From: Minisyncoccia bacterium
GTDB lineage: Bacteria; Patescibacteriota; Minisyncoccia; SW-4-49-11
Length of the DNA stretch: 64,000 nt
Direction of reading: 5' to 3'
NCBI GenBank assembly: GCA_044341565.1
Contig: JBIIRM010000002.1
Span: 1,812-65,811 of the forward strand
Shown here in pieces: positions 22,411-63,764 of this stretch. The notes under the pieces are model-generated. The model saw only the letters and a list, made by a program, of their open reading frames with translations. It searched no databases and was not told the origin of the DNA. Within the stretch, counting starts at the first letter, position 1, and every line of letters starts with the position of its first letter. The translations under genes were made by a program, and so were the position numbers.

Positions 22411-22447
22411 ATTTATAAGAATTGTATAAATTATCATATTTTAACTT

Positions 22448-22729: not shown

Positions 22730-22738
22730 ATTTATATA

Positions 22739-22787: not shown

Positions 22788-22891
22788 ATTTTTTAGAGAA
22801 AATTACATTGCTGTTTGCATATCTTATTTTATATTACAGGCAGAATAGCTATAGATAATCTCAAAGAAAATAATAATATTAATCGCATTAT

Positions 22892-24658
22892 ATGCAATCA
22901 AAACGACCGTACAATAATAATTTACAGAATAAGAATAACCGTTCTCGATCTCAAGGAAAAAGTTTTGCTCAAAAAAGAACTATTCCTGAAACCTCACGCC
23001 AAGCTCTCAAGATAATTCCTTTGGGAGGCCTTGATGGTGTTGGCAAGAATATGTATATATTTGAACAAGAGAATGATATTCTGATTGTCGATATGGGGCT
23101 TCAAATGCCCGGTGCTAATCAACCAGGAATTGATTATATTATCCCCAATACACAATATTTGATGGATAATAGCTCCAAAATAAAGGGAGTAGTATTAACT
23201 TCACCACATCCCGATCATATTGGGGCTGTTCCATATCTTTTACATTTATTCCCTAATTTGCATATTTATGCAACCGAGGCTTTATTTGCAATATTGGAGT
23301 CTAGGCAAGATTTTTATTCTCAAGGGGTAAAATACAAAAAACATATTATTAAACCCTATAATTCTATACGAGTAGGATCCTTTAAAGTGAATGTTTTCCC
23401 AACTCCATTTAATGTTATGGGTTCAATAGGATTATGTGTGTATACTATGCAAGGAAAGGTATTTTATCTCTCTAGCTATAAATTGGATAGTGAATCTACA
23501 GAAAAAAATGAATTTCTCGATTATATAAAGGAATTAGCTGGAGCTGATACATTTGCTCTTTTATCAGGTAGTTCAGCTACAGAATCACAGGGATTTGCAC
23601 CGACAGAAGCATCTATTGCAGAACATATTGATTCGGTTATAGCTCGCAAGACAGGTGCTGTATTTGTGTCTACATTCCCCTCTATGATTGGGCGCATGCA
23701 ACAAATTGTCAATGCAATAGAAGCTCATAACAAGCATTTATTCATTGAAGGAAAAAGTTTACTTAATACTTTTAATACATGTCGCAAAAAGGGGCTTATT
23801 CAAATAAAATCAGGTACTATAGTAGGGCCTAGTTTACTCGGGGATACTCCAAGAGAGCAATTAGTAGTATTAATATCTGGTTCTCATGGAGATGATATTC
23901 CTCATTTGATGAGACTGGCTAATAATGAGCATAGTGTATTCTCAATTAAAGAAGGGGATATTGTTATGTATCCTGGGGCTTTAATTCCTGGAAATGCCCG
24001 TTCAGCAGCTCGAGTAAATGATAATTTTGCTAAATTAGGAGCTTTTGTAGAATATTATCAGCCATTAGATACACGATTTGGGGCTTATGGAAGACATGAA
24101 GATAGTCTAGCTGTATTAAAAGCAATTCGTCCTAAATATTATGTACCTATTAGTGGATCACATCATTTGTTGAGGTCTAATGGAGATATTGCCATTGAAG
24201 GTGGGTATCCAGATCGCAATGTTGTAGTTGGTATGAATGGAAAAGTTATTCTATTTGATTATAAACAAAGACGTATTACTCCGGAAAAAGTTCCTACTTC
24301 CAATGTAATTGTAGATGGGCTTGGAGTTGGTGATTTAACCAATGTAGTTATACATGATAGGCAAACAATGTCAGAAGAGGGTATATTCCATATTGTAGCC
24401 CTACTGAATGCAGATACTCGAGAAATATCAGGAGATATTGTGGTAGTATCAAAAGGATTTGTAGATAATGAATCTTCAGATAAATTATTTAATGAAGTAA
24501 AAGAACAAACAAGATTAATTGTATTAGCTCTTTTGAAACAATCTGATGAAGTAAATATTGCCTATATACAAGATCAAGTAAGAGAGAATATTGGTCGCTT
24601 ATTACTTACGAAAACGGAAAGAAGACCAATGATTTTACCAATAATAATGAATATTTAA
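22892..24658 (+). CDS. Ribonuclease J paralog with degenerate metal-binding motif and basic N-terminal extension
   Basis: 588 aa beta-CASP/metallo-beta-lactamase architecture collinear with the next gene. Motif 2 reads SPHPDH rather than HxHxDH. Confidence 0.8.
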   Translation: MQSKRPYNNNLQNKNNRSRSQGKSFAQKRTIPETSRQALKIIPLGGLDGVGKNMYIFEQENDILIVDMGLQMPGANQPGIDYIIPNTQYLMDNSSKIKGVVLTSPHPDHIGAVPYLLHLFPNLHIYATEALFAILESRQDFYSQGVKYKKHIIKPYNSIRVGSFKVNVFPTPFNVMGSIGLCVYTMQGKVFYLSSYKLDSESTEKNEFLDYIKELAGADTFALLSGSSATESQGFAPTEASIAEHIDSVIARKTGAVFVSTFPSMIGRMQQIVNAIEAHNKHLFIEGKSLLNTFNTCRKKGLIQIKSGTIVGPSLLGDTPREQLVVLISGSHGDDIPHLMRLANNEHSVFSIKEGDIVMYPGALIPGNARSAARVNDNFAKLGAFVEYYQPLDTRFGAYGRHEDSLAVLKAIRPKYYVPISGSHHLLRSNGDIAIEGGYPDRNVVVGMNGKVILFDYKQRRITPEKVPTSNVIVDGLGVGDLTNVVIHDRQTMSEEGIFHIVALLNADTREISGDIVVVSKGFVDNESSDKLFNEVKEQTRLIVLALLKQSDEVNIAYIQDQVRENIGRLLLTKTERRPMILPIIMNI

Positions 24659-24659
24659 T

Positions 24660-26435
24660 ATGAAATCGTATCAACACTCTGAAATTAAGAGAGGAACAAC
24701 TTTTGTGACAGATTTAAGTCATAAAAGTAATGACTATCTTAATGCAAAAGAACCATTTAAGACTAAAGATAATCTTTTGAAAATTATTCCACTGGGTGGA
24801 TCAGAAGAAATTGGAGGTCGTAATATGACGGTAATAGAATATGGAAAAGATATTCTCGTCATTGATATTGGGATGAAATTCCCAGAAGAAGATCAACCAG
24901 GAGTTGATTATATTATCCCCAATCCCAGTTATCTTAAGGGGAAAGAGGATAATATTCGAGCTGTACTAATTACGCATGGACATATGGATCATATTGGAGG
25001 AGTATCTCAGGTTATGTCTATGATTGGTAATCCTCCTATATATGCACCTGCCCTACCTCTTGCTATGATGCAAAGACGACAAAGTGAATTCACTACCGTG
25101 CCTCCATTAAATGGAAAAGTAGCTAAATTAAATGAAAAGCTTAAATTTGGAGTATTTACTGTAACCTTTCTTCATATTAATCACAGTATTCCAGATTCAA
25201 CTATGATTAAGATTGAAACTCCAGAAGGAGTTATTCTGCATACGGGAGATTTCAAAATAGATGCTACTCCTATTGGAGAAGAGCCAGCTAATTTGGAAAT
25301 GTATCGCAAAATTGGTGATGAGGGAGTATTGGTATTATTATCTGATAGTACTAGTGCTTCTCGTCCCGGAAGAGTAACTTCTGAGATGACAATTCAAAAT
25401 AATATTGATCATATTTTTGAGAATGCTACCGGTAAAATTATTGTTACTACATTTTCTAGTACACTCAATCGTATACAACAAATGATTCATTTATCTGAAA
25501 AATATAATCGTAAAGTTGTAATTGAAGGATTTAGTATGAAAACGAATGTTCAAATTCTCCATGAAATTGGATATGCACATTTTTCTCCTCAAACTGTTAT
25601 TAGTGCACAAGAGGCTCGTAATATTCCTCCAGAAAACCTTACTATTATTTGTACAGGAGCTCAGGGAGATGAACGCTCAGCCCTAACCCGTATGGCTAAT
25701 CGTGAGCATCGGAATTTCCATATTGAAAAGGGAGATACCGTAGTATTCTCATCTTCTGTAGTTCCAGGTAATGAGGAGTCAGTACAAAAGGTGAAAGATG
25801 CTATTGCTCGCCAAAGAGCTCATATTATTCATTATAAAATGATGGAAGTTCATGTTTCCGGACATGCACAAAGAGATGATTTAAAACAATTATTAGATTT
25901 AATTCGTCCTAAATATTTACAGCCAATTTATGGAGATTTTTATTCTCTCAAATCTCATCGTGATTTAGCTCTAGAAGTTGGTATGAAAAAAGATAATATC
26001 TTACTTACTGATAATGGAAGAATTATAGAAATATATAAGGGTGAAGCCCGTGTAACTACTGAGAAAGTTAATGCTAGCACTATGATGGTGGATGGACTCG
26101 GAGTAGGGGATTTAAAAGAAATTGTAATCCGAGATAGACAATCTTTGGCTCAAGATGGTATTGTAACGGTAGTAGCTTTAGTTGATTTCAAAAAGGGAAA
26201 GCTTATTCGTGAACCAGAAATTATTTCTAAGGGATTTGTACATATACAAACATCTACCAAATTAATACAATCTATACAAGCTCGAGTACAAGAGCATATT
26301 GAGAAGAAATTGTCTCATGGAGAAGATCAAAGTATTGAATATATTCAACAATCAATTCGTGAAGATTTAGGTCTATTCTTATTCAGAACTACCCATAGAA
26401 GACCAATGATTATACCGGTTATTATTGAAATATAA
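24660..26435 (+). CDS. rnj: Ribonuclease J
   Basis: 591 aa. LKIIPLGGSEEIGGRNM, canonical THGHMDHIGG, beta-CASP and C-terminal domains. Confidence 0.9.
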   Translation: MKSYQHSEIKRGTTFVTDLSHKSNDYLNAKEPFKTKDNLLKIIPLGGSEEIGGRNMTVIEYGKDILVIDIGMKFPEEDQPGVDYIIPNPSYLKGKEDNIRAVLITHGHMDHIGGVSQVMSMIGNPPIYAPALPLAMMQRRQSEFTTVPPLNGKVAKLNEKLKFGVFTVTFLHINHSIPDSTMIKIETPEGVILHTGDFKIDATPIGEEPANLEMYRKIGDEGVLVLLSDSTSASRPGRVTSEMTIQNNIDHIFENATGKIIVTTFSSTLNRIQQMIHLSEKYNRKVVIEGFSMKTNVQILHEIGYAHFSPQTVISAQEARNIPPENLTIICTGAQGDERSALTRMANREHRNFHIEKGDTVVFSSSVVPGNEESVQKVKDAIARQRAHIIHYKMMEVHVSGHAQRDDLKQLLDLIRPKYLQPIYGDFYSLKSHRDLALEVGMKKDNILLTDNGRIIEIYKGEARVTTEKVNASTMMVDGLGVGDLKEIVIRDRQSLAQDGIVTVVALVDFKKGKLIREPEIISKGFVHIQTSTKLIQSIQARVQEHIEKKLSHGEDQSIEYIQQSIREDLGLFLFRTTHRRPMIIPVIIEI

Positions 26436-44238: not shown

Positions 44239-44300
44239 TATCTATTGATAAAATGTCATATATATGATAGGGTAGAGATGTCCATCTTTGGTTATTTACC

Positions 44301-44696
44301 ATGAAAAAGCTCTTTCTCCCTTTTGTAACAGCAATTTCAGTTCTATTCCCAATGGCAGCAACAGCTCAATGGTGGGGTGAATCTTTTGAAAGTATTGAAT
44401 ATAATGGGGTGATAATTCGCTCCGATATTCGTCCACGCACTATTATTTGTCCTATTGTGGAATCACAAGGATTACCTTGTGATGGATATCAAGGATTCAA
44501 TGCATCCACCAGGACTCATATTTTTAGAAATAATGGGAATTGGAATAATAATAGAAACTGGAATAATCAGTGGCAAAACCCAGGATGGAATAATAATCAA
44601 CATTGGAGACAGCCTAATTCAGGATGGAATAATAATGGAGGTTGCCTCTTCAAAAAATGGACGCGAGATGGTGGCTTTGCAATCGGGAATTGCTGA
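44301..44696 (+). CDS. Secreted Asn/Trp-rich small protein (island unit 1, host-like AT-rich composition)
   Basis: Signal peptide MKKLFLPFVTAISVLFPMAATAQ. NWNNNRNWNNQWQNPGWNNNQHWRQPNSGWNNNGG low-complexity block, encoded by a recurring TGGAATAATAAT unit. Cys residues flank the block. Confidence 0.7.
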   Translation: MKKLFLPFVTAISVLFPMAATAQWWGESFESIEYNGVIIRSDIRPRTIICPIVESQGLPCDGYQGFNASTRTHIFRNNGNWNNNRNWNNQWQNPGWNNNQHWRQPNSGWNNNGGCLFKKWTRDGGFAIGNC

Positions 44697-44718
44697 TACA
44701 TTATTTTCCAATCTCAAG

Positions 44719-44747
44719 CCGGTAGCAATAGCTGCCGGTATTTTTTT
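44719..44747 (+). terminator. Intrinsic terminator of island unit 1
   Basis: CCGGTAGC-aata-GCTGCCGG (one G.U pair), followed by TATTTTTTT. Confidence 0.65.
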
Positions 44748-44758
44748 GTTTTTATATC

Positions 44759-44787
44759 TTGACAAATAAGATATAATATGCTATAGT
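44759..44787 (+). promoter_or_regulatory. Extended -10 promoter of island unit 2
   Basis: TTGACA (44759-44764), 17-nt spacer ending in ATGC, TATAGT (44782-44787). Confidence 0.6.
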
Positions 44788-44812
44788 CACTAAGTCGTTT
44801 CGTGGATAAACC

Positions 44813-45124
44813 ATGAAAACTCTTACCAAGTTCATCGCCGGCGCTCTGCTGGCAGGCACCACACTTCTGACCGTGGCTCCCGCCACGGCTCAGTCCCTCA
44901 GCGGCAGGGTCGCCGTCGGACCCATCGGGTCCACCACGAGGGCCTGGACCTCGGTCTCCGAAGCTCAGTCCCTGTGTGCCCGCAATGGGTGCTGGGTGAC
45001 CGATGGGGTGGAGGTGTCACCCGGTAATTGGGTACCGAACACTCTGTTCCCGGGGGCGAAATCCCTCAGGGATTCAGCTGGGAACGGCCTGCTCGAGATT
45101 CCTCGAGCGACATCTCCTCGCTGA
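44813..45124 (+). CDS. High-GC secreted small protein, unknown function (island unit 2)
   Basis: 103 aa. Signal peptide MKTLTKFIAGALLAGTTLLTVAPATAQ. GC-rich third codon positions (gcc ggc gct ctg ctg gca ggc acc). Line 44881-44940 counts 44/60 G+C. Confidence 0.7.
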   Translation: MKTLTKFIAGALLAGTTLLTVAPATAQSLSGRVAVGPIGSTTRAWTSVSEAQSLCARNGCWVTDGVEVSPGNWVPNTLFPGAKSLRDSAGNGLLEIPRATSPR

Positions 45125-45150
45125 GGTGTCAGTTCAGTTTAGTTCAATAA

Positions 45151-45176
45151 GCCTCTGCAATGCAGGGGCCTTTTTT
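45151..45176 (+). terminator. Intrinsic terminator of island unit 2
   Basis: GCCTCTGC-aat-GCAGGGGC (one G.U pair), followed by CTTTTTT. Confidence 0.7.
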
Positions 45177-45199
45177 ATATATTGAAATGTTGTCAATAC

Positions 45200-45228
45200 T
45201 TGACTTTTTGGTTTAAATATGCTATTAT
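45200..45228 (+). promoter_or_regulatory. Extended -10 promoter of island unit 3
   Basis: TTGACT (45200-45205), 17-nt spacer ending in ATGC, TATTAT (45223-45228). Confidence 0.6.
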
Positions 45229-45255
45229 AGATCCGTCTTTCATGGGTTTATCCTA

Positions 45256-46254
45256 ATGAAAAAGTTCATTCCCATCTTGCTTGGCTCTGTTTTACTGGCT
45301 TCGGCTGGAAAGGCGGAGACATTGCCTTTGAGGCTCCAGATCAGCACCCCAGATTCCAATCGGGCGGTGAGGGTGATCATAAGTCCCAGTCAAGCGAAAG
45401 CCTCGGCAGGGCTGGTAACAGCTCGTCCTGGTTCCAATCCCTCGGACTGGGCACCTCAGTACAATAGACTGATTAACCAAAAGGCCCTCGGGTCTCGCGG
45501 TCAATCGGGTGCTGGGCTCACAGCAGGTACGCCTCGGCGTTTCTGTCTGGTGCCTTTGTACCAGGAGGTGAAAAATCTCTCTGCGCTCCCTTGTGGAGCT
45601 TATGGGGAGAGTATCAACTTCCGGTCCAATGGACCCCTTGCCTTCAGCCTTATCAGTGTCAAATCTGATGGTGGATGGCAATGGCTCGACAATGGGCCTA
45701 AGGGGGCTGGTACTGGTGGTCTTACTCTTGTAAGTTCACCAGGCTGGGAAGTTGCTGGGTGGGGACATACCTCAAAAGGGTATGTCCCCACCAGCAGGGG
45801 AGTATTCTTTGGCCCCATCTTCACGGGTGGGGACTTGGCTACCTCGAGGATTTTATCCTCGACTCCCGCCTCGGCGGTGAGGGAGCCTATCTGGCGTCTG
45901 CCAGATTCTGGGCTCAGGTTCCCGGCAGTGATCACGGTCAGCAATGATCGTATCACTCTCTCCACCACCCCCATTCCCGGGGCGCAATATTTCTTCCTCC
46001 CTCGGGAGGGCGGTATGTCGGTAGGACGCGAATTCATCGCAATTCAGCCAGGAGTAGCATTCCAAGCTGGAGTTCAGCTGAACTCCTCCGCTACCGATGC
46101 TGGCACCTTTGGTGCCAAGCTTCCCGATGGCAAGATTGCCTGGATTCAATGGGGATCTCGTCCTGATGGACGTGACACCCGGGTCAAGGTGATTAATCAA
46201 GGTGGTCAGCCCTGGGTTCAGCAAGGTTGGAGCTTGGTCCGCGTTCATCGCTGA
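45256..46254 (+). CDS. High-GC secreted protein, unknown function (island unit 3)
   Basis: 332 aa. Signal peptide MKKFIPILLGSVLLASAGKAE. G/P/S/W-rich mature part. Promoter, terminator and signal peptide all support the + strand over the open antisense frames. Confidence 0.75.
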   Translation: MKKFIPILLGSVLLASAGKAETLPLRLQISTPDSNRAVRVIISPSQAKASAGLVTARPGSNPSDWAPQYNRLINQKALGSRGQSGAGLTAGTPRRFCLVPLYQEVKNLSALPCGAYGESINFRSNGPLAFSLISVKSDGGWQWLDNGPKGAGTGGLTLVSSPGWEVAGWGHTSKGYVPTSRGVFFGPIFTGGDLATSRILSSTPASAVREPIWRLPDSGLRFPAVITVSNDRITLSTTPIPGAQYFFLPREGGMSVGREFIAIQPGVAFQAGVQLNSSATDAGTFGAKLPDGKIAWIQWGSRPDGRDTRVKVINQGGQPWVQQGWSLVRVHR

Positions 46255-46271
46255 TCAGACTCCTCATATCA

Positions 46272-46298
46272 GCCCTCACAATTTGTGGGGGCTTTTTT
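46272..46298 (+). terminator. Intrinsic terminator of island unit 3
   Basis: GCCCTCACA-att-TGTGGGGGC (one G.U pair), followed by TTTTTT. Confidence 0.7.
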
Positions 46299-46337
46299 AT
46301 TTCTCTCCAAAAACACTATAATAGATGTTGTTAGCTA

Positions 46338-46366
46338 TTGACAAAATCGTGTTTTTATGCTAGTAT
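46338..46366 (+). promoter_or_regulatory. Extended -10 promoter of island unit 4
   Basis: TTGACA (46338-46343), 17-nt spacer ending in ATGC, TAGTAT (46361-46366). The TTG of the -35 box is what the ORF track used as a start codon. Confidence 0.6.
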
Positions 46367-46394
46367 GCGAGAGTTCTTTACCAGGAGTTTTACG

Positions 46395-47528
46395 ATGAAA
46401 AATCGTAACATCTTGGGGATGTTTGCAATCGTTCTTCCACTACTTGCCCCTATGGGTGTCAAGGCGGAGAATTTGCTCTCATCACCTCAATCGAATATCC
46501 AGGCAGAAATGCCTCGGAGACTCTCAACTCGAGAGCAAGCAGCTGAGCTTCGCGCCATGCGTGAAGCTGCCGAGGCTCGTAATGCTGGAAGTGTTCCGCA
46601 AATGTCACAGACTCCACCTGGACCACCACCGGTTTTGCCGGTAACTCAGGTTGTGACACAACAACCTGTCAATCCTGTGGTTGCAGGACCTGTTGTTACC
46701 CCTTTTCAAAAGGGCGGTGGAGAATCCTCCCTGTTCGGTGGTAATAACACCAATATCAGGGGGGAGGCAGAGTACAGTAGCACTCCCAGCCAGATCAATT
46801 CCAAGGCTGGAGTCACGCTGGCTCCCAAGGGGAAACCTTTCCTGATGCAAGTTACCGGCTATCAAAGCTCGGGAACTTGCCCAGCAGGTCCGGGAGGTAC
46901 TTGTTCCTATGATTCCAGTAAGCTGGATATCTATGGGGCTCTGAGAGGCTGGTCTTCCACTACCGAGTGGAATGCTGGTCCCTTTGTCCGTTTCCAGCAG
47001 AATAATGCTAATGGGACTTGGAAAAGCCCCGATGGTCTTTATTCCGGTGAATGGAAGTCGGATAAGCCTCAGACTGATGTCGGTATCCGAGCCCGGATTC
47101 GTCATCGCCTGGACCCCAAGTCTTCCGCCAATCCTTGGATTGGTGCAGGTGGCGAATACGATTTCGCCAATGGAGGCTATGACGCCTTCGGCGAAGGCGG
47201 TATTCGCCCCGGCAACTCCAAGAATCCCTGGAATCTGTATGTCCAGGGGGGTGTGAATACTGACGGAGGATATTTTTATCCCGAGGTCACCACACCTAAT
47301 CTGGTGGGGGATGCCAATTCGAAGCTGCAGGTCCAGCTTCAGGCAAAGGGAGTTCTTTATGGCCTCGGCCGTGATAACTCCACTAGTCGAGTTGAACTCG
47401 GGGCCCCCATCACCCTGAATCTCAGCCGCAATACGGCTATTCAGGTGGTGCCAGCCTATGTGCTGGGACTCGACTCCAATACCCGCTCAGGGTTTGGGGG
47501 CACAGTAAAGCTCCGCTTCGGCTTCTGA
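46395..47528 (+). CDS. Moderately high-GC secreted protein with outer-membrane beta-barrel hallmarks (island unit 4)
   Basis: Start reassigned to the ATG at 46395, with GGAG 8 nt upstream. Signal peptide MKNRNILGMFAIVLPLLAPMGVKAE, a Pro-rich stretch, then a G/N/Y/W-rich region with alternating-hydrophobic strands. The protein ends in GGTVKLRFGF* (terminal Phe, hydrophobic at -3, -5, -7). Confidence 0.75.
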   Translation: MKNRNILGMFAIVLPLLAPMGVKAENLLSSPQSNIQAEMPRRLSTREQAAELRAMREAAEARNAGSVPQMSQTPPGPPPVLPVTQVVTQQPVNPVVAGPVVTPFQKGGGESSLFGGNNTNIRGEAEYSSTPSQINSKAGVTLAPKGKPFLMQVTGYQSSGTCPAGPGGTCSYDSSKLDIYGALRGWSSTTEWNAGPFVRFQQNNANGTWKSPDGLYSGEWKSDKPQTDVGIRARIRHRLDPKSSANPWIGAGGEYDFANGGYDAFGEGGIRPGNSKNPWNLYVQGGVNTDGGYFYPEVTTPNLVGDANSKLQVQLQAKGVLYGLGRDNSTSRVELGAPITLNLSRNTAIQVVPAYVLGLDSNTRSGFGGTVKLRFGF

Positions 47529-47606
47529 AGTAAAACCAAAAATGATAGCAACTAACCCCTCACGGGGAGCAGTCGCCTTGACCATCTCTGGTTTTATACC
47601 CCTATA

Positions 47607-47640
47607 TCTCCAGCTGCTTGCAGTTGGGGATTTTCATTTT
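47607..47640 (+). terminator. Intrinsic terminator of island unit 4
   Basis: TCTCCAGCTG-cttg-CAGTTGGGGA (two G.U pairs), followed by TTTTCATTTT. Confidence 0.65.
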
Positions 47641-47687
47641 GTAAGAATATAGGCTATAATAGATTTTATATCTGCTCTTTTAGATTC

Positions 47688-47879
47688 ATGAGACGCAACC
47701 CAGTCTTACTGATTATATCTATTTTGGTAGCTGTAATCATTCAGCATAGTATTGCCGAAGAAGATATTATGTCAGAGAATATTCCTCATCAGTCTCAGGT
47801 ACTGCTTAGTATTTTGTCTCTCCTCTCAGGTTTGATTGGAGCTGATATATTTATGACAGGTATTCGACTCATTTGGTAA
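47688..47879 (+). CDS. Small hydrophobic (two-TM) protein, unknown function (island unit 5)
   Basis: 63 aa, MRRNPVLLIISILVAVIIQHS...LLSILSLLSGLIGADIFMTGI. TATAAT at 47655-47660 upstream and a hairpin downstream. By eye its GC looks intermediate between host and island (not counted). Confidence 0.45.
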   Translation: MRRNPVLLIISILVAVIIQHSIAEEDIMSENIPHQSQVLLSILSLLSGLIGADIFMTGIRLIW

Positions 47880-47896
47880 TGCTTCAACTTTAGGTT

Positions 47897-47930
47897 CACT
47901 CTCAATTCGAGGGTGGGCTTTTCTTTATTT
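47897..47930 (+). terminator. Intrinsic terminator of island unit 5
   Basis: CACTCTC-aattc-GAGGGTG (one G.U pair), followed by GGCTTTTCTTTATTT. Confidence 0.55.
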
Positions 47931-47946
47931 CAGTTGTTGAAAACTT

Positions 47947-47975
47947 TTGACATTTGAGTCAAAATATGCTATAAT
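47947..47975 (+). promoter_or_regulatory. Extended -10 promoter of the downstream glycosyltransferase gene
   Basis: TTGACA (47947-47952), 17-nt spacer ending in ATGC, TATAAT (47970-47975). Confidence 0.6.
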
Positions 47976-55103: not shown

Positions 55104-56174
55104 ATGTTAGGATTAGGAGTAAAAAATTCGTTTGGTATTGATATTGGTACACAAACTATTAAAATTTCGGAAGTTCAAAAACAAGGAGGGAAAATATCCG
55201 TGATTAATTATAGTATTTGGGATGATGATTTAGATAATATTATTCAAGAGAAAAACGGGGAACATATTATTTCTGTATCTCAGATTACCACCATTATACA
55301 AGCTATGCTTAATGCTGCTAAAATGGAAATAAAGGAGGCATATATTGCAATCCCTTCATATTTAGCTTTTTCAGCAGTTGTTCAATTTCCTCTTATGTCA
55401 TTTGAAGAATTGTCTACAGCTGTACCACTTGAAGCAAAACAATATATTCCTGTTCCTTTAACCAGCGTGCAATTAGATTGGATGAATTTAGGGCCTAATA
55501 AGGAAAAAGATAAATTAAATGTATTAGTAATTGCCATTCCTAATAGTGTGGTAAATACGTATATTGAAGTAAGTAAAGCCCTAGGTATTACGATTAAGGG
55601 ATTTGAATTAGATGCTTTCTCTATTATTCGTTCTATTGATTTGCCCAATAGTCAAGTATGTGTTGTAGATATTGGGGCAAGAACCAGTACGGTAAGTATT
55701 GTTAATACAGAAGATCAATTGCAATTAATACAATCATTTGATTTTGGAGGGAATCATATTACGGATAAAATTTCATCTTCTCATAATATATCCAGTATAG
55801 AAGCAGAAAAACTCAAAAAAGATAATGGAATATCTGGTCCTAAGTCAGAAATATCAGCCTTAATACAATCTGGGATTAAGAGCTTTTTTGAAAATGAAGT
55901 ATTGCGTATTATTCACCAATTCCAAGATAATAATGAAGAAAAAATACAAGATATTGTATTGCTTGGTGGCTTTGCTAAAATGGACGGTATTCGAGAATTT
56001 GTTGATTTAGTTATTAATAATCAATTAGGAGTAAGTCAAAAAATTACTATTACTGTTGCAGAACCCTATTCTAATCTGAGCATTAAAGGGGTGAAGGATA
56101 AGGAAGTTCTGCATGCAATTTGGCATGATTTGGTATTGTCAATTGGTATTTCACTTAAAGATTATGTCGAATAA
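55104..56174 (+). CDS. pilM: Type IV pilus assembly ATPase-like protein PilM
   Basis: FGIDIGTQTIKISEV actin-like fold; 356 aa; first gene of the pilus cluster. Confidence 0.8.
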   Translation: MLGLGVKNSFGIDIGTQTIKISEVQKQGGKISVINYSIWDDDLDNIIQEKNGEHIISVSQITTIIQAMLNAAKMEIKEAYIAIPSYLAFSAVVQFPLMSFEELSTAVPLEAKQYIPVPLTSVQLDWMNLGPNKEKDKLNVLVIAIPNSVVNTYIEVSKALGITIKGFELDAFSIIRSIDLPNSQVCVVDIGARTSTVSIVNTEDQLQLIQSFDFGGNHITDKISSSHNISSIEAEKLKKDNGISGPKSEISALIQSGIKSFFENEVLRIIHQFQDNNEEKIQDIVLLGGFAKMDGIREFVDLVINNQLGVSQKITITVAEPYSNLSIKGVKDKEVLHAIWHDLVLSIGISLKDYVE

Positions 56175-56175
56175 T

Positions 56176-56706
56176 ATGGAAAATATTAGCTTTATTCCTA
56201 ATAGACAAAAAGGCTCAGAGGGATATGTGACTATTAAAGAGGAGCATCCTTATCGGGGGTATATTATTGGATTTATATTGACATTAATTATATACATAGG
56301 AGTATTGGGTTCTGTTTATTGGGTTTATATTATAAAGCCTACGAATGAATATAATCAAATTTTAGCAGATTTAAATGAAAGAAATAGTGTATATTATCCA
56401 AAAGATGATTTAGAAAAAACAGTGTATAATGTGAATACATTGATTTCTCAAACATATGATCCAGTTGAAATTATGAAAGAAATTGAAGCAACATATACTA
56501 CTGGGTTTAAAACAAGTTCTTGGGTATATAGTGCACAAAAAAAGACTATTATTCTTTCAGCACAAGCGCTTTCTTTTGATGATGCTAATTCTCAAATATC
56601 TAAGATAAAGGAGGTTAAAGGTGTTATAGATGCTTCTTCCCCAGATATTAGGAAGAATTCTGAGGGTAGTGGAGTTAGTCTTGATATATTGATTAAGTTA
56701 AAGTAG
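56176..56706 (+). CDS. PilN-like pilus assembly membrane protein
   Basis: Single TM (YIIGFILTLIIYIGVLGSVYWVYII) plus a periplasmic-type domain, immediately after pilM. An alternative ATG at 56164 cannot be excluded. Confidence 0.5.
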   Translation: MENISFIPNRQKGSEGYVTIKEEHPYRGYIIGFILTLIIYIGVLGSVYWVYIIKPTNEYNQILADLNERNSVYYPKDDLEKTVYNVNTLISQTYDPVEIMKEIEATYTTGFKTSSWVYSAQKKTIILSAQALSFDDANSQISKIKEVKGVIDASSPDIRKNSEGSGVSLDILIKLK

Positions 56707-56711
56707 ATGAT

Positions 56712-57242
56712 ATGAATCAAAAAACCCTTTTATCCATTTCATTCTGTATTATATTTATTACTTTGATTTGGACAATAACTAATTTTTATACTGATTTTTT
56801 GACAAGTAAATTCTCTGGAGTAAAGGAATTACAGAAAAAAACACAAATTACCCAATCATTTGCTGATCAAAAGTCGCCCTCAGAATTGGCAAAAAGAATA
56901 AATGAATTCACACCAGATTCACTGGATAAGACCGCGATTACAACAGAATTTACACAATTTGCAAGAGAATCTAATATTGAAATAGCTTCCATCTCTGTAG
57001 ATGAGCAGGGTTCACTAATAAAAGATACTAATAACTTAGATACCAATAATACTTCTATTAATACATTAAGACCAGTGAATATTTTATTAAAAATAACTGG
57101 AGGTAGAAGAGAAATATATACTTTTTTACAAAAATTAATACAATCAAAGCGATATATAGGGGTGAATACCGTTAGCTTATCTTTTGCTAAAGGATTAGGT
57201 AATATAGAGGGAGCTATTAATGCAATAACATATTATAAATAA
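56712..57242 (+). CDS. PilO-like pilus assembly membrane protein
   Basis: Single N-terminal TM plus a roughly 140-aa domain. Assigned by position in the pilM-N-O order only. Confidence 0.4.
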   Translation: MNQKTLLSISFCIIFITLIWTITNFYTDFLTSKFSGVKELQKKTQITQSFADQKSPSELAKRINEFTPDSLDKTAITTEFTQFARESNIEIASISVDEQGSLIKDTNNLDTNNTSINTLRPVNILLKITGGRREIYTFLQKLIQSKRYIGVNTVSLSFAKGLGNIEGAINAITYYK

Positions 57243-57244
57243 AT

Positions 57245-57427
57245 ATGAAAAATATATCTCAAATTATTGAAAGGTATCACAAATTCATTATAGTATCAGT
57301 TAGTATTATAGCTGTAGGCTATTTTGGATATCAAATATTTGCTATTATATTAAATCATATATCTGTTGGGGATACCGATATAGTAGCACCTAGCTTTGAT
57401 ACTATTAGTAGTTATTTTAAGTTATAA
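57245..57427 (+). CDS. Small membrane protein in the pilus operon
   Basis: 60 aa with one TM (FIIVSVSIIAVGYFGYQIFAIIL), tightly packed between the pilO-like gene and pilB. Confidence 0.4.
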   Translation: MKNISQIIERYHKFIIVSVSIIAVGYFGYQIFAIILNHISVGDTDIVAPSFDTISSYFKL

Positions 57428-57428
57428 T

Positions 57429-59144
57429 ATGCAATTAGATTTAAAAAAAACATTTGAATTGTTGAAAAATGAATTTCCTGATAAATTTAAGTCAATAGCT
57501 TCTTTTGATACTATAACAGAATCAGAAATTAAAGCCTTTCTCGAGAAAAATTTTACGGAAAAAGAATTAATAACAGTAAATGCTCAAATTTTGGGATTAG
57601 AATTTATAGATTTAGAGAATATTAGTATACCAAAAGAATTATATGATATTTTACCGGTTAATATTATGCAAAGATATACCTTAATTCCTTTTGCACAAGA
57701 AAATAATACTATTTCTATCGCTATTGCTGACCCACAAAATTATACTGCTATACAAGCTCTTAAGTTTATTTTTCAAGAAAAAAAATTATCTTTTGAGTTA
57801 TTGGTCGCAATAGAATCAGATATTAAACGAACTCTCAAAAGAACAGGAACTTTAAAAAATGCAGTTACAGAAAATCTTGAGGAATTTCATCAAAAAAATG
57901 AAGCAGAACAAATACTCCCAGATACCACAGGTATTACAACAGAAAATTTAGAAAGTGCTCCTATTATCAAAATTGTATCTGTTATTATTAGAAATGCCGT
58001 AGAAGGGGGAGCATCAGATATACATATTGAAGGAACTGATGAATCGGTACGGGTAAGATTTCGTGTGGATGGAGTATTACATACTAGTTTGATTTTACCA
58101 AAAGAAGCCTATTCTCCCGTTGTTGCTCGTATTAAAATTTTATCAAATCTCAAAATTGATGAGCAAAGAAAGCCCCAGGATGGAAGATTTTCTATTTTAG
58201 ATAAAGATAAAAAAGTAGATTTTCGTGTATCGACTTTCCCTACCCAATATGGAGAAAAGGTAGTATTGAGAATTTTAGATACTTCGAACGGTATTAGATC
58301 ATTAGAGCAATTAGGATTTATTGGTCCTCGAGTAAACTTGATTCAAGAAGCAATCAAAAAACCATTTGGTATGCTTCTATTAACAGGACCAACGGGATCT
58401 GGTAAATCAACTACAGTTTATACTCTGTTATCACAAATTAATACGGATGATATTAATATTGTGACATTAGAGGATCCAATAGAATACTATTTATCTGGAG
58501 TTAATCAGTCTCAGGTAAAGCCAGAAATAAATTACACCTTTGCTTCTGGACTTAGATCAATTTTGAGGCAGGATCCAGATGTTATTATGGTAGGAGAAAT
58601 CCGAGATGGTGAAACCGCAGGGCTTGCGGTACAATCAGCTTTAACGGGGCATATTGTGTTCTCAACTCTACATACTAATGATGCTCCAGGAGCATTACCT
58701 CGGCTTATTGATATGGGGGTAGAGCCATTTTTGTTATCTGCCTCACTACAAATAGTTATTGCACAGCGATTAGTAAGAAAATTATGTGAGGAATGTAAAC
58801 AAGCAGTTCCCTTAGATGGAAAAGAAAGAGAATATATACAAGAGTCTTTGACTACATTAACTCCCGAATATATCAAAGAAGTATATAATGGTAATTATGA
58901 TACATTATACACGCCTGTGGGCTGTGCCAAATGCTCGGGTGGATTCAAAGGAAGAATGGCAATTTTTGAGGTAGTGGTAATGACAGAGGAATTACAAGCA
59001 ATTGTAGAAAAAAAATTCAATGAAAATGAGGTTTCTGAATATCTTCGAGCCCATGATTATGTTACCCTAAAACAAGATGGTATATTAAAGGTATTGCAGG
59101 GATATCTTTCTCTCCCAGAGTTATTAACAACTATAGAGATATAG
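57429..59144 (+). CDS. pilB: Type IV pilus extension ATPase PilB (GspE family)
   Basis: Start reassigned to the ATG at 57429 (MQLDLKK). T2SSE_N domain, Walker A GPTGSGKSTT, Asp/His boxes, and a tetracysteine motif CEEC...CAKC. Confidence 0.9.
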   Translation: MQLDLKKTFELLKNEFPDKFKSIASFDTITESEIKAFLEKNFTEKELITVNAQILGLEFIDLENISIPKELYDILPVNIMQRYTLIPFAQENNTISIAIADPQNYTAIQALKFIFQEKKLSFELLVAIESDIKRTLKRTGTLKNAVTENLEEFHQKNEAEQILPDTTGITTENLESAPIIKIVSVIIRNAVEGGASDIHIEGTDESVRVRFRVDGVLHTSLILPKEAYSPVVARIKILSNLKIDEQRKPQDGRFSILDKDKKVDFRVSTFPTQYGEKVVLRILDTSNGIRSLEQLGFIGPRVNLIQEAIKKPFGMLLLTGPTGSGKSTTVYTLLSQINTDDINIVTLEDPIEYYLSGVNQSQVKPEINYTFASGLRSILRQDPDVIMVGEIRDGETAGLAVQSALTGHIVFSTLHTNDAPGALPRLIDMGVEPFLLSASLQIVIAQRLVRKLCEECKQAVPLDGKEREYIQESLTTLTPEYIKEVYNGNYDTLYTPVGCAKCSGGFKGRMAIFEVVVMTEELQAIVEKKFNENEVSEYLRAHDYVTLKQDGILKVLQGYLSLPELLTTIEI

Positions 59145-59201
59145 GCAAAATAATAAAGATATGATATTATTAATACAAAATAAGAGTAAATAAACATATA
59201 T

Positions 59202-59582
59202 ATGAAGAATCACATATTATTGATTGAGGATGATAGTTTCATTACACAAATGTATGCTACAAAAATTGATGAATTAGGTTTTAATGTATTTACCGCCTCT
59301 AATCAACCTGAGGTAAAGGATATTCTTGCTAAAAATGGAAAACAAATTAGTTTAATTCTTCTTGACCTTATACTTCCTGATGTGAGTGGATTTGATATAT
59401 TGCAATGGATAAAAAAGCAAGCTAATCTTAAAGATATTCCTGTAGTTGTCTTGAGTAATTTATCTTCTCAGGCTGATATTAATCAAGCTTTTGAGCTTGG
59501 GGCAGTTGATTATATTGTAAAATCAAATTATACTCCTACTGAGGTAATGCGTACGGTACAAAAGTATTTACCAACATCTTAA
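59202..59582 (+). CDS. CheY-like single-domain response regulator
   Basis: ILLIEDD, LILLDLILPDVSG, VVVLSN, DYIVKS. No output domain. Confidence 0.85.
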   Translation: MKNHILLIEDDSFITQMYATKIDELGFNVFTASNQPEVKDILAKNGKQISLILLDLILPDVSGFDILQWIKKQANLKDIPVVVLSNLSSQADINQAFELGAVDYIVKSNYTPTEVMRTVQKYLPTS

Positions 59583-59592
59583 ACACAGATAT

Positions 59593-60666
59593 ATGTCAAT
59601 CGATTTAAAACCAATAATAACACAAATAGTAAATATCAAAGGATCAGATATTCATCTTACTACGGGGAGTAAACCAGTACTTAGAATTAAGAATAGATTA
59701 ATTCCTCTTGAAGATCAGCCGGTATTAACTAAGGAGGTTCTTGATGAATTCTTAAAATCTATTTTACGAGAAGATCAAGTAATAGCCTTATATGCTGGTG
59801 AGGAACAAGATTTTGCCTATACATTCCCTGAATCAAATGCTCGATTCCGTGTAAATGCTTTTATTGCTCAAGCTAATCCTAATCTGGTAATGAGATATTT
59901 ACCATCTGAGATTTTAACCTTTGAGCAATTGGGGCTTCCCTCTGTTATGCATCAATTCTCTCAATTAATACAAGGATTTGTGCTTGTTACCGGGCCAACA
60001 GGTTCGGGTAAATCTACTACATTAGCATCAGTGATTAATGAGATTAATCATACCCGAGATGTAAAAATTGTTACTATTGAAGATCCAATTGAATTTATTT
60101 ATACTTCAGATAAAAGTATTATTACTCAAAGAGAAGTAGGTTATGATACTAAAAGTTTTACCAATGCACTTCAATCATCTTTTCGTCAGGATATAGATGT
60201 TATTCTTTTAGGGGAAATGAGAGATTTGGATACTGTTCAAGTTGCAGTAACTGCAGCTGAGACAGGGCATCTTGTTTTTTCAACACTTCATACCAATAGT
60301 GCTGCCCAGTCCATTGACCGTATTATTGATACCTTCCCTGTTCATCAACAAGGACAGGTAAGATCTCAATTATCTACATCTCTACAAGCTGTTGTCTCAC
60401 AGAGACTTATACCTACTATTAAAGGAGATTTAACTCCAGCTCTTGAAATCCTATTAGCTAATAATGCGGTAAAAAGTCTTATTCGAGAAAATCGAATTTA
60501 TCAATTGGACACTGTTATTGAAACTCATCGTAAAGAAGGTATGATATCTATGAATTTATCATTATTTGATCTTATTCGCACAGGAATTGTATCATTCGAA
60601 ACGGCTTTATTATATTCCCCTGACCCCATTAGTTTGAGGAATATGCTAAAACGATCAACATTATAA
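59593..60666 (+). CDS. pilT: Type IV pilus retraction ATPase PilT
   Basis: 357 aa. GSDIHL, GPTGSGKSTTLAS, ILLGEMRD, GHLVFSTLHT. Confidence 0.9.
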   Translation: MSIDLKPIITQIVNIKGSDIHLTTGSKPVLRIKNRLIPLEDQPVLTKEVLDEFLKSILREDQVIALYAGEEQDFAYTFPESNARFRVNAFIAQANPNLVMRYLPSEILTFEQLGLPSVMHQFSQLIQGFVLVTGPTGSGKSTTLASVINEINHTRDVKIVTIEDPIEFIYTSDKSIITQREVGYDTKSFTNALQSSFRQDIDVILLGEMRDLDTVQVAVTAAETGHLVFSTLHTNSAAQSIDRIIDTFPVHQQGQVRSQLSTSLQAVVSQRLIPTIKGDLTPALEILLANNAVKSLIRENRIYQLDTVIETHRKEGMISMNLSLFDLIRTGIVSFETALLYSPDPISLRNMLKRSTL

Positions 60667-60676
60667 TACATAATAT

Positions 60677-61894
60677 ATGGCAAAATTTAGTTATTTAGCA
60701 AAATCACAAGATGGGAAATCAAGACAAGGATTTATCAATGCTGTTAATGAGGATATTGCTTTAACAGATTTACAATCTAAGGGACTTATTGTTATTTCTC
60801 TGAAAAATACTAATAGTCAATCTTTATTTAAACAAGATTTAGAAATATTTAATAGGGTATCAGAAAGAGAATTAGTAATATTTTCTCGTATAATGGCAAC
60901 ATTTTTAGAAGTACAAATTCCTTTAATTGAAGCCCTCTCACTAATAAGACAGCAGAATAAGAAGAATAAATACTTTATATCAATACTCGATCAATTAATA
61001 GCAGATGTTCAAGATGGTAATTTATTATCTGAGGCAATGGCGAAGCATCCAAAAGTATTCAGCCAATTATATGTTGCTATGACGCGTTCTGGGGAGGCTG
61101 CAGGAGGATTACAAGAATCTCTCTTATATATGGCGGATTATCTTGAGGGGCAATATGATTTGAATAATAAAATTAAGGGAGCTTTAGCATATCCGGTATT
61201 TGTATTATTAGTGTTTTTTATTATTGGACTTGGTATCGCATATTTTGTCCTACCACAATTAGTACAAGTTCTTAATGATTTAGGGACAGATGTGCAATTA
61301 CCTTGGACTACACAACTTATTATATTGGGTTCTAAGCTATTACAACAATTTATAGGAGTTATAGTAGGAGGACTTATACTCTTTGTGGGAGGATTTATAC
61401 TCTTTCTTCGTACAGAGGGGGGTACAAGATGGGCTGATAAATGGAAATTAAAATTGCCACTTTTTGGAGCATTATTTGTAAAATTATATGTAACTCGTTT
61501 CTCTTCCAATATGAACACTCTATTACAGGGAGGAGTTCCTATTCTTACAGCTCTTGAAATTAGTTCAATGGTAGTGGGTAATATTGTATTCAAAAATATT
61601 ATTCAGGACGCTATTAATACTATGAAGGATGGTGGAGAATTATCCAAGGCACTGCTACAGCATAAGGAATTCCCATACGTGGCATCTCAAATTATATCGG
61701 TAGGAGAGAAAACGGGAAAAATGAATTCTGTATTAAAAACATTATCACGATTTTATAAAACAGAAGTAGATAATGTCGTAGCTAATTTAACAGTATTATT
61801 GGAGCCAGTTATGATAGTAGTACTGGGAATAGGAGTTGCAATATTTGTAGTATCTATATTGCTTCCTATTTACAATATAGCAGGTTCAATTTAA
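60677..61894 (+). CDS. pilC: Type IV pilus platform protein PilC (GspF family)
   Basis: 405 aa. Two T2SSF repeats and three TM regions. Confidence 0.9.
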
Positions 61895-61937
61895 TATATA
61901 TATATATGAAATATATACAGAAGGGGGGTGTAAACAA

Positions 61938-62354
61938 ATGAAACAGTTAAAAAAAGGATTTACACTTATTGAGCTTTTGGTTGTTATTGCTATTATTGGT
62001 ATTTTAGCAGCTATTGTACTTGTCAATGTATCTCAAGCTCGTCAAAAAGCTAGAGCAGCTGCTATTCTTGCGGCTTTGGGCCAGGTTAGAACATATATGG
62101 AGTTAAATGTCAATGCAAATGGTAGTTATCCAGCAGTATCAACTTTAACTAGTATTGCACAAAGCGTTGCAAATAGCCAAGGAACTACATTAACAGGAAG
62201 TGGTGCAAACTCAGCAACTTATCGAGCTTATACAACCCCTAGTAGTACTGGGGCTTGGGGCGCTGGTATTACAGCTATATGTGTGGATAGTACCGGTACT
62301 AGTAAAACGTATACCACGACATTTACTCCGGGAACTGCAGACACTTGTCCATAA
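61938..62354 (+). CDS. Type IV pilin (probable major pilin)
   Basis: [31 protein letters not shown]-rich globular part with a C-terminal Cys pair. Strong SD AAGGGGGG 9 nt upstream. Confidence 0.9.
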
Positions 62355-62445
62355 TTCAAATTACTTTGTATAGATAAGAGATTGTTTAATCTTTTATCTA
62401 TCAAAATAATTGGAATATATTGTGTATAAAGATAAATAGAATAAT

Positions 62446-63276
62446 ATGGATGCAATATATTATATATTAGGAATAATATTTACTTTAGGTTTGGGTATAG
62501 GAAGTTTTTTGAATGTGGTATTATTCAGGATGACTACTGAGAAAAAGTTCTGGAATGGTAGATCAGAATGTATGAGTTGTCATCATACTCTTGAATGGTA
62601 TGAGCTGATACCATTATTCTCTTATATTATACAGAGAGGTAGATGTAGAGAATGTCAAGTAAAGCTATCTCTGCAATACCCTTTGGTTGAATTATTAACA
62701 GCGATACTGTTTACAGGATTTGCTTATTTGTATATTCCGGATTTAATATCTCTGTATAGTTTTACCCCTATACAATATATACGAGGGCTTATTATATATA
62801 TTCTTATAACTCAACTTATTATTGTCTTTGTATATGATTTGCAGTATCAATTAATTTCCGTAATTCAGCTAAGAGCCATACAAATATTAGGGTTAATATA
62901 TTTTGGTATAGACTATTATCAAGCTCGTATTATGCCAGATTCTCTTATTACCGCTTTATTAAGTGCTGGTATTGTATTATTCTTGTATATTATTACCAAA
63001 AAGCAAGGTATAGGTTGGGGGGATGTGGAATTATTTGCGGGATTGGGATTATTTATCCCCTTAATGTGGTTTGTCCCATTTTTCTTTGGGTCATTTGTAA
63101 TAGGAATGATATGGGGAATACTAGTAATGATTATGAATCGCAATTCTTCTCTGAAGCAAAAAATTGCTTTTGGACCAAGTATTATACTTTCATTTGTAAT
63201 AATATATACCTTAATTCAAGTACAGCTTGTACCAAGTACTAATATATGGTATTATTGGATTATATATAATATATAA
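62446..63276 (+). CDS. pilD: Prepilin peptidase (A24 family) with N-terminal Cys-rich domain
   Basis: CMSCHHTLEWYELIPLFSY...GRCRECQ. Polytopic, with GWGDVE and a second Asp-containing motif region. Confidence 0.85.
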   Translation: MDAIYYILGIIFTLGLGIGSFLNVVLFRMTTEKKFWNGRSECMSCHHTLEWYELIPLFSYIIQRGRCRECQVKLSLQYPLVELLTAILFTGFAYLYIPDLISLYSFTPIQYIRGLIIYILITQLIIVFVYDLQYQLISVIQLRAIQILGLIYFGIDYYQARIMPDSLITALLSAGIVLFLYIITKKQGIGWGDVELFAGLGLFIPLMWFVPFFFGSFVIGMIWGILVMIMNRNSSLKQKIAFGPSIILSFVIIYTLIQVQLVPSTNIWYYWIIYNI

Positions 63277-63278
63277 AA

Positions 63279-63764
63279 ATGAAAAAAGGATTTACATTAG
63301 CAGAATTAATCGTATCCATCTCCATTATCACCCTATTATCTGTTATTGGTGTACAGACTTATGTTACTGCTCAGCGTAGCGCACAATTAAAGTCAGATGT
63401 AATAACAGTGACTTCTGCTATTAGACAAGCTCAGAATAGAGCTTTATCTCCTTCTCGAAGTGATTTAACTGGAATAGGAATTGATGATGAGCTTTGTGCT
63501 ATGGGGGTGGAGGTAATTGCACCAAAGACAATTAAAAGTTATTATGTTGTGAAGCCATGTAGTACTACTACTCCCACTTATTATGGTACAGACATAGTAT
63601 TACAAAGTGCTACATTGAAGTCAGGAGGGAAATTTGAATTCAGATTACCTTTTGCTAATAATAGATCCACAGCACAATCAATACAATTAGAATTGCCAGG
63701 ATCAGGAGTGGTGGAAAAAACAATCACTGTTACAAAAGATTCTGGATTAATTAAGGTTGAATAA
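63279..63764 (+). CDS. Minor pilin/pseudopilin
   Basis: MKKGFTLAELIVSISIITLLSVIGV prepilin motif. Confidence 0.8.
   Translation: MKKGFTLAELIVSISIITLLSVIGVQTYVTAQRSAQLKSDVITVTSAIRQAQNRALSPSRSDLTGIGIDDELCAMGVEVIAPKTIKSYYVVKPCSTTTPTYYGTDIVLQSATLKSGGKFEFRLPFANNRSTAQSIQLELPGSGVVEKTITVTKDSGLIKVE

Follow-up and report, generated by a model that had tools for sequence, protein, structure and literature searches.

We analysed a 64,000-nucleotide (nt) stretch of contig JBIIRM010000002.1 from a Minisyncoccia bacterium (the window, ~32% GC), and focused on an island of ~3.3 kb. The island is a GC-rich patch in the AT-rich genome of an ultra-small bacterium from the CPR (candidate phyla radiation) and contains five genes for secreted or membrane proteins, here called units 1 to 5. 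It splits an envelope polysaccharide cluster, with Wzz, Wzy and a GT4 glycosyltransferase on the 5' flank and another GT4, DUF4012 and RecG on the 3' flank. On balance, we consider the island to be a native, clade-conserved and modular locus for envelope proteins in a freshwater Parcubacteria/Paceibacteria lineage, which recombines and is probably highly expressed. In the proposed mechanism, each island gene would be its own transcription unit. A near-consensus extended -10 sigma-70 promoter (TTGACA-N12-tATGcTAtaaT) would start a short-leader mRNA, and a strong, strand-specific intrinsic terminator would end it 12-77 nt past the stop codon. The outcome would be high, independent and insulated expression of each protein, in a genome that otherwise relies on tightly packed operons. 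The locus is also hypervariable, and lineages swap its alleles by homologous recombination. On one side, the unit-4 breakpoints are bordered by AT-rich segments (promoter/leader and signal peptide) that are conserved, and the coding parts are therefore mosaics with histories different from those of the flanks. We found no prior description of this locus in the literature.

The relatives used for comparison are labelled L003, L005, L008, L009, L011, L014, L015, L016, L018, L019, L021, L032, L044, L070 and L093. The closest of them, obtained by scanning GTDB species genomes with the downstream GT4, are Parcubacteria/Paceibacteria ('Minisyncoccia') metagenome-assembled genomes with 77-100% identity, largely freshwater by their record titles. 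The island occupies the same slot in more than ten species from independent assemblies, and in all sampled clade members (at least 77% GT4 identity) except L018. The same arrangement recurs in JGI, ENA, Logan and NCBI assemblies of different samples and species.

A sequence-only reading of the window had described the island genes as promoter-ORF-terminator modules (ORF, open reading frame) with plus-strand hairpins, and the enrichment of the signals, their conservation in about ten relatives and covariation support this description. The promoters that it placed at 44759, 45200, 46338 and 47947 score 11, 10, 10 and 12 of 12 against TTGACA-17-TATAAT, and all four carry TG before the -10 box, as TATGC ahead of TA. 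AT-rich DNA gives many weak promoter-like matches (66 vs 48 expected). The strict pattern TTGAC-N15-TGnTAnnnT is matched six times on both strands of the 64 kb, against 0.12 expected from shuffles, and four of the six matches are these sites. The other two lie at 22382 (+) and 40966 (-), the latter upstream of rpmE (L31). A repeat finder independently clustered the four promoters into a single 41-nt family, whose members also have TGTT in common ~12 nt upstream of the -35 box. In the island units, 25-31 nt separate the -10 box from the ATG. Among the relatives, the same promoter type precedes every island gene in L003, L005, L008, L009, L011, L014, L016, L019 and L015; the unit-2 promoter is conserved in the first eight of these. 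In their 12-21-kb loci, exact TTGAC-type matches outside the island occur only at rpmE and the downstream GT4. When the spacers are aligned, the -35 and TATGCTA blocks are conserved, while the centres of the spacers vary. The weak unit-1 site is clearer in L009, L011 and L016 (TTGATATTTATAATAATATATGTTATGGT). For unit 5, the -10 box is conserved in L008, L011 and L044, and the promoter abuts or overlaps the unit-4 terminator.

Extended -10 promoters ('TRTGn', -16 region) of the sigma-A/sigma-70 type are described for Bacillus subtilis and other Gram-positives. The island promoters share with them TTGACA, the 17-bp spacer, TATGc abutting TATAAT and the short distance to the ATG. They differ by an extra TGTTGT block ~12 nt 5' of the -35 box in three of four units. 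This TGTTGT / GATGTTGTTA block precedes the unit-3, unit-4 and GT4 promoters (45188-45193, 46326-46331 and 47935-47939) and stands at the same position in relatives. Its role might be that of an UP element or of a binding site for a regulator.

A scan recovered all five hairpin terminators with T-runs that had been claimed. When the scan was tightened to a minimum of 7 pairs and of 5 G-C pairs, a loop of 3-8 nt and a T-run, these five were the sole matches on either strand of the whole window, while block shuffles preserving local composition gave a mean of 0.17 matches per region and a maximum of 2. One or two G.U pairs had been proposed for each stem. This holds for terminators 1-4 (2, 1, 1 and 2), but the fifth has 4. 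The further claim that the hairpins are unidirectional agrees with the folding energies, which are -15.2 to -17.8 kcal/mol for the plus-strand RNA and -5.8 to -13.8 kcal/mol for the complement. The complement hairpins carry internal mismatches at the former G.U positions, and the T-runs are confined to the plus side, with interruptions in terminators 4 and 5. Compensatory change was computed for terminator 1, and the other terminators were judged by eye. Across nine genomes, 98.8% of the cells in the terminator-1 stem are paired and three pairs have changed on both sides; slid alignments, used as a control, pair at most 53%. This stem also shows U.G to U-A and A-U to G.U exchanges, and the exchanges between G.U and Watson-Crick pairs argue for selection on the plus-strand RNA. 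Orthologous stems of terminator 2 differ in sequence yet stay paired, and each island ORF of the relatives ends in a GC-rich plus-strand hairpin with a T-run.

These hairpins resemble intrinsic (Rho-independent) terminators in their GC-rich 8-12-bp stems, 3-5-nt loops, T-runs, position 12-77 nt after the stop codon (77 nt for unit 4) and compensatory changes across species. The difference is their concentration in the island. The 64 kb hold no others this strong, and the host thus seems to make sparing use of them. The suggested contrast with the packed rest of the window is also evident. Neighbouring island genes on the same strand are separated by 62-159 nt, against a median of 8 nt for such gaps in the rest of the window, where 29 of 47 measure at most 20 nt.

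The leader motif GTC(G)TTTC(G/A)TGG that had been read in units 2 and 3 is present in the window and kept in the unit-2 and unit-3 leaders of relatives. It is complementary to CC-AUG-AAA, so pairing with the start-codon region is predicted. Units 2 and 3 have no Shine-Dalgarno sequence, while unit 4 has AGGAG at 46383-46387. The predicted leader stems are weak (6-9 bp, with consensus energies of -3.5 and -7 kcal/mol). The unit-2 pairing was derived from the consensus fold of eight orthologous leaders, which show no compensatory changes. For the unit-3 leader, 9 pairs are predicted. One of them has switched from G-C to C-G, and changes from G.U to A-U also occur. The hairpins may control translation or protect the 5' end; the host encodes two RNase J paralogues. 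At the other end of the unit-4 transcript, the 3' untranslated region (UTR) holds a structured element that is near-identical in the window, L044, L008 (~3710-3775) and L011 (~9203-9268), in L011 even though the upstream coding sequence is 29% identical. The fold of 47526-47645, which covers this element and terminator 4, has an energy of -33.3 kcal/mol (z = -2.4). A second 3' UTR variant (AACTCCCCCTTGGAGG...GGGAGTT) replaces the element in L003, L005, L009, L016 and L019. An Rfam search over the island and the whole window gave two tRNAs only, plus sub-threshold noise.

The island genes are real. Selection across orthologues of the three central ORFs is purifying (dN/dS 0.15-0.29). Units 1-4 carry Sec-type signal peptides, whose ends pair up as the sequence-only reading had noted, with ATAQ in units 1 and 2 and KAE(T/N)L in units 3 and 4. 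Unit 2 was missed by public gene callers, and in L005 an antisense ORF (7515-7895, -) was called instead. The unit-2 family has 10 members, and its dN/dS of 0.23-0.29, signal peptide and own promoter and terminator indicate that the plus-strand ORF is the real gene. Unit 3 has a dN/dS of 0.15-0.19, and with a predicted local distance difference test (pLDDT) score of 46 for its AlphaFold2 model, no fold is assigned. The five proteins have no family in Pfam, NCBIfam or PHROGs, and the unit-3 and unit-4 profiles gave no match to PDB sequences. Homologue searches yielded 39, 21 and 10 unnamed proteins, and the central ORFs are orphan families. Unit 5 is missing from L003, L005, L009, L016 and L019. 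Unit 1 is the sole island gene retained in L018, and a weak relative of it occurs in L021.

Unit 4 is predicted to be an outer-membrane-type beta-barrel. In 46365-46395, the public call of 387 aa begins at an ATG within the -10 box of its own promoter, and the start is likely the ATG at 46395 behind the AGGAG, giving 377 aa. The signal peptide, MKNRNILGMFAIVLPLLAPMGVKA followed by E after the cut, was assigned by inspection rather than by a predictor. In the AlphaFold2 model, a helix (45-64) and a disordered Pro-rich linker precede a barrel of ~260 residues at pLDDT ~85, and the predicted strands close into an antiparallel transmembrane barrel. The best PDB matches in Foldseek were FapF, FadL and autotransporter barrels, with E-values down to 3e-7. 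The protein ends in ...VKLRFGF (a second class has ...GFRF), with the alternating hydrophobics and terminal Phe known from the beta-signals of outer-membrane proteins (OMPs). Of 35 aligned family sequences, 30 end in Phe and four in Leu, and the remaining one is C-terminally extended. The protein of the window matched no curated OMP family, and three relatives gave sub-threshold matches to the autotransporter beta-domain (best E = 7.5e-4). Identity is 5-12% to the 14-stranded outer-membrane barrels OmpG, FadL/TodX, CymA and PorV and to FapF, which is built of a coiled coil, a linker and a barrel. Unlike these, unit 4 matched no Pfam family and its host lineage is regarded as having no outer membrane. 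The family profile matches only five cluster representatives among 1.84 billion, and all placeable ones map to this slot.

Unit 4 is a mosaic whose N-terminal module and barrel have separate histories. For example, proteins P0005 and P0030 are 84% identical in the N-terminus and 27% in the barrel, whereas P0003 and the window protein are 46% identical in the N-terminus and 99% in the barrel. The identity of the unit-4 promoter and leader tracks the N-terminal type, not the barrel class; this promoter is 82% identical to those of L009 and L011, where the coding sequences are only 37-38% identical (protein). The histories of island and flanks also disagree. Between the window and L003, the synonymous divergence (dS) of unit 4 is 0.34 while the flanks are saturated at 1.4-1.6; with L008, unit 4 has a dS of 1.03 and the flanks ~0.57. 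L011 is 92-93% identical to the window in the flanks and 29% in unit 4. Over 21 kb (window 38007-59185), blocks of 100% and ~90% identity to L044, the closest GTDB genome, alternate, a pattern that indicates pervasive homologous recombination in the population. The shuffling of individually expressed genes that had been suggested for the island is thus real in that pieces of different history are combined, but the exchanged piece is not a whole promoter-ORF-terminator module, and the breakpoints lie within genes.

The base composition of the island is unusual. The three central ORFs have 54-63% GC and a third-position GC content (GC3) of 0.51-0.70, the spacers between island ORFs have 28-39% GC, and the composition shifts sharply at the ORF ends. 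Host genes have a GC3 of 0.16-0.21, including those for L31, L25 and two pilins. High expression was rejected as the cause of the GC-rich codons, as the L31, L25 and pilin genes stay at 0.16-0.20. It is unlikely that the island is left over from an ancestor richer in GC or came by introgression from those GC-richer relatives that were sampled, with homologues there reaching a GC3 of only 0.36-0.37. Parsimony-polarised singleton changes at third positions were discarded, as the flank-gene control gave an absurd excess of weak-to-strong changes (saturation, parsimony bias). A substitution test of the GC origin between the window and L044 was dropped because the differences cluster in blocks, which points to recombination imports and not to point mutations. 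Three candidate causes remain. The genes may have been imported from GC-rich relatives outside the sample, gene conversion with a GC bias may act at a recombination hot spot, or selection may act on the mRNA. Either of the last two might keep the excess of 30-50 GC3 points in situ.

Table 1. Coordinates of island features in the window
Feature	Coordinates	Strand	Description
Unit-1 promoter-like site, weak	44245..44273	+	TTGATA-N17-TAGGGT, TG before -10; pattern scan
Unit 1	44301..44696	+	131 aa, N/W-rich, four Cys, signal peptide (...AATAQ/WW, cut at slash); GC3 0.29
Terminator 1	44718..44747	+	9-bp stem, 2 G.U, loop AATA, T7; -16.9 kcal/mol, z = -4.9
Unit-2 promoter	44759..44787	+	TTGACA-17-TATAGT, extended -10 TATGC
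Unit-2 leader hairpin, predicted	44798..44818	+	TTTCGTGG pairs with CCATGAAA, start codon inside; short, weakly stable
Unit 2	44813..45124	+	103-aa secreted protein; GC 0.63, GC3 0.70
Terminator 2	45151..45177	+	8-bp stem, 1 G.U, loop AAT, T6
Unit-3 promoter	45200..45228	+	TTGACT-17-TATTAT, TATGC; TGTTGT 12 nt 5' of -35
Unit-3 leader hairpin, predicted	45238..45261	+	TTTCATGGG pairs with ATG AAA codon region
Unit 3	45256..46254	+	332-aa secreted protein, predicted all-beta; GC3 0.55
Terminator 3	46271..46300	+	10-bp stem, 1 G.U, loop ATT, T6; -16.3 kcal/mol, z = -4.8
Unit-4 promoter	46338..46366	+	TTGACA-17-TAGTAT, TATGC; conserved GATGTTGTTA ahead
Unit 4	46395..47528	+	377 aa (likely start): signal peptide, helix 45-64, Pro-rich linker, predicted 14-stranded OMP-like beta-barrel ending ...VKLRFGF
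Unit-4 3' UTR structured element, conserved	47530..47597	+	~68 nt, closed by 9-bp stem
Terminator 4	47606..47640	+	11-bp stem, 2 G.U, interrupted T-run
Unit-5 promoter, weak	47631..47660	+	TTTTCA-18-TATAAT; good -10, poor -35
Unit 5	47688..47879	+	63-aa small hydrophobic protein; GC3 0.33
Terminator 5	47892..47928	+	12-bp stem, 4 G.U; -15.4 kcal/mol vs -5.8 on complement
Promoter of host GT4-DUF4012 genes, not of an island gene	47947..47975	+	12/12 plus TG

The deviant composition bears directly on the origin of the locus. The sequence-only reading had suggested stepwise capture as one possibility. Spelled out as horizontal acquisition, this means that the GC-rich ORFs were taken up singly from GC-rich (diderm) donors and then equipped with host promoters. 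The GC3 contrast with its sharp jumps at the ORF ends, the outer-membrane-type barrel with a beta-signal-like C-terminus and the lack of the GC-rich genes in L018 are what this history would leave, and GC3-enriched genes for secreted proteins also stand beside Wzz/Wzy in two other Parcubacteria. However, island families also reside in the slot of more distant relatives. L021 (GT4 63% identical, genome 45% GC) holds there a protein of the 269-aa family that shares 52% identity with its L011 counterpart. In L093 (GT4 57% identical, 44% GC), the slot holds a class-B barrel of the unit-4 family, which shares 39% identity with the L011 one. These genes are not GC-enriched (GC3 0.36-0.37 vs 0.39-0.46 in neighbours), so the GC excess is a trait of the genes in the AT-rich clade and not just a mark of recent import. 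In L018, 8600-9460 contains unit 1 with promoter and terminator only, followed by ~320 nt of AT-rich spacer before the GT4 promoter; L018 is nested within the clade in a neighbour-joining tree of GT4, which suggests loss, and its slot has the appearance of a natural deletion that removed the GC-rich genes. The unit promoters are orthologous across alleles. No homologues outside the group were found among 5.8 billion proteins or 1.84 billion cluster representatives, the few unit-4 matches that can be placed all return to this slot, and viral contigs scanned with units 3 and 4 gave no relatives. Neither an integrase nor a tRNA gene was seen in the slot, and a repeat search gave no convincing att-like flanking repeats. 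Deviant composition and codon usage are thus the marks of a horizontal island found here, while mobility genes, tRNA, direct repeats, an outside donor and absence from the site in relatives are not. We regard capture as unlikely.

The transcriptional side also has an alternative, an operon with internal signals. In it, co-transcription would dominate for the five genes, the hairpins would terminate partially or stabilise the 3' ends of processed mRNAs, and the promoters would be supplementary. The units are all co-oriented, the weak unit-5 promoter overlaps terminator 4, terminators 4 and 5 have interrupted T-runs, and the two RNase J paralogues make mRNA processing with 5'/3' protection plausible. 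Yet four of the six best promoters in 64 kb stand here, T6-T7 runs directly follow the GC-rich stems of 8-10 bp in terminators 1-3, and the gene content of the island varies unit by unit between relatives. An operon of this kind appears to us quite improbable. For a metagenome-derived sequence in which weak promoter-like matches exceed expectation, one could imagine that the assembly is chimeric or that AT-rich DNA produced the pattern by chance. The recurrence of the arrangement across databases, samples and species, the strict promoter and terminator motifs far above expectation, and signals that are conserved in relatives, one terminator with covariation, make such an artefact hardly credible. 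The native modular locus stays our preferred account, from which we infer monocistronic transcripts, high expression and an envelope function of the island. Several points weigh against it. The weak unit-5 promoter touches terminator 4, and some read-through or co-transcription is possible. The five proteins have no assigned function. A GC3 of 0.51-0.70 against 0.16-0.21 is a classic foreign-DNA signature, for which a native locus gives no explanation. Finally, an OMP-type barrel has no obvious home in CPR bacteria, a lineage regarded as monoderm and as having neither an outer membrane nor porins (PMC12102498; bioRxiv 10.1101/2021.05.31.446380).

Within the window, a type IV pilus cluster (55104-63764) encodes PilM, two small proteins, PilB, a response regulator, PilT, PilC, pilins and PilD. 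The secretin PilQ is absent from it, which is consistent with a single-membrane envelope. A speculative solution, which we think doubtful, is that the cell is an episymbiont whose strongly expressed 14-stranded barrel, with a C-terminal signal of the BAM type, would serve no purpose in its own envelope. The cell would deliver it into the outer membrane of a Gram-negative host as a conduit or anchor, with rapid allelic turnover tracking host specificity. In-situ maintenance of the GC excess is a less exotic idea than this one.

Several known systems share parts of the design. Monocistronic and highly expressed envelope genes include E. coli ompA and lpp, S-layer genes by glycosylation clusters and Neisseria opa. 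The island is similar to them in its own strong promoters and terminators, signal peptides, polysaccharide or glycosylation neighbours and strain-variable alleles, and differs by five tandem units, orphan proteins, a CPR host and an expression that is predicted. Hypervariable envelope islands at fixed sites are known in streamlined aquatic bacteria, such as hypervariable region 2 (HVR2) of SAR11 and the O-antigen loci. A fixed slot between conserved flanks, envelope genes and content varying among close relatives are common to both, but here the same few families persist and recombine within genes instead of wholesale replacement, and the island is GC-rich, not AT-rich. The vls antigenic-variation locus of Borrelia is GC-rich within an AT-rich genome. 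Like vls, the island is a putative surface-protein locus with GC far above the genome and recombination-driven variation. Unlike vls, its GC skew is only ~0.01-0.04 and its variation is between lineages, not shown within a cell; no vls-type silent cassette array or extra copies were found within the 64-kb window. Integron cassette arrays are also tandem, co-oriented and compact, but cassettes are usually promoterless, with attC beside an integrase, whereas every unit here has its own promoter and terminator. No integrase was seen in or beside the slot, and a general repeat search, with no search specific for attC, gave no boundary repeats.

Some further observations were made around the locus. 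In unit 1, imperfect tandem repeats at 44529-44646 encode motifs of the W-N-N-N type (WNNN). In its relatives, Q/G/Y-rich tracts replace these repeats, and a C-terminus of the ...R(I/V)LCN type is conserved. In relatives without unit 5, a -10-like TGCTATAAT stands directly 5' of the -35 box of the GT4 promoter (L003 ~9325-9340, L005 ~10418-10432, L009, L015 and L016), which suggests tandem promoters. The top-grade promoter at 22382 lies ~480 nt upstream of the two tandem RNase J paralogues (22892-26435). Between them, 22382-22892 contains neither an ORF of at least 100 aa nor an Rfam match and may be a long regulatory leader. In L032 (2754-5988) and L070 (2683-6146), which are unrelated Parcubacteria, genes for secreted proteins or lipoproteins are wedged between Wzz and Wzy and packed as operons. 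Their GC3 is 0.49-0.66 vs 0.32-0.42 in neighbours in L032 and 0.70-0.90 vs 0.47-0.49 in L070, which hints at a wider pattern. One L070 protein starts with a motif resembling LysM by eye, and one L032 protein has a helix, Pro-rich linker and beta-rich layout like unit 4. The unit-4 profile gave no convincing homology to the secreted proteins of L032 and L070 (probabilities 31% and 0.2%).

What sets this locus apart from an ordinary genomic island is a barrel in a presumed monoderm, together with a GC excess that is specific to the locus. For the databases, two gene calls are corrected, as unit 2 was missed by callers and unit 4 was started 10 codons too early. CPR/Patescibacteria are mostly uncultivated and their expression signals are inferred by analogy; the locus gives a comparative set of promoters, leaders and terminators that are apparently functional. 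If confirmed, native genes with a GC3 of 0.5-0.7 in a genome with a GC3 of 0.2 would bear on what sets bacterial GC content, and in-situ GC maintenance, if true, would be an extreme bacterial case of locus-specific GC enrichment. A confirmed barrel in a presumed monoderm would bear on CPR envelope structure and host contact. The locus also flags proteins that the cell apparently produces in large amounts and diversifies most rapidly; these are likely its interface with hosts, phages or the environment.

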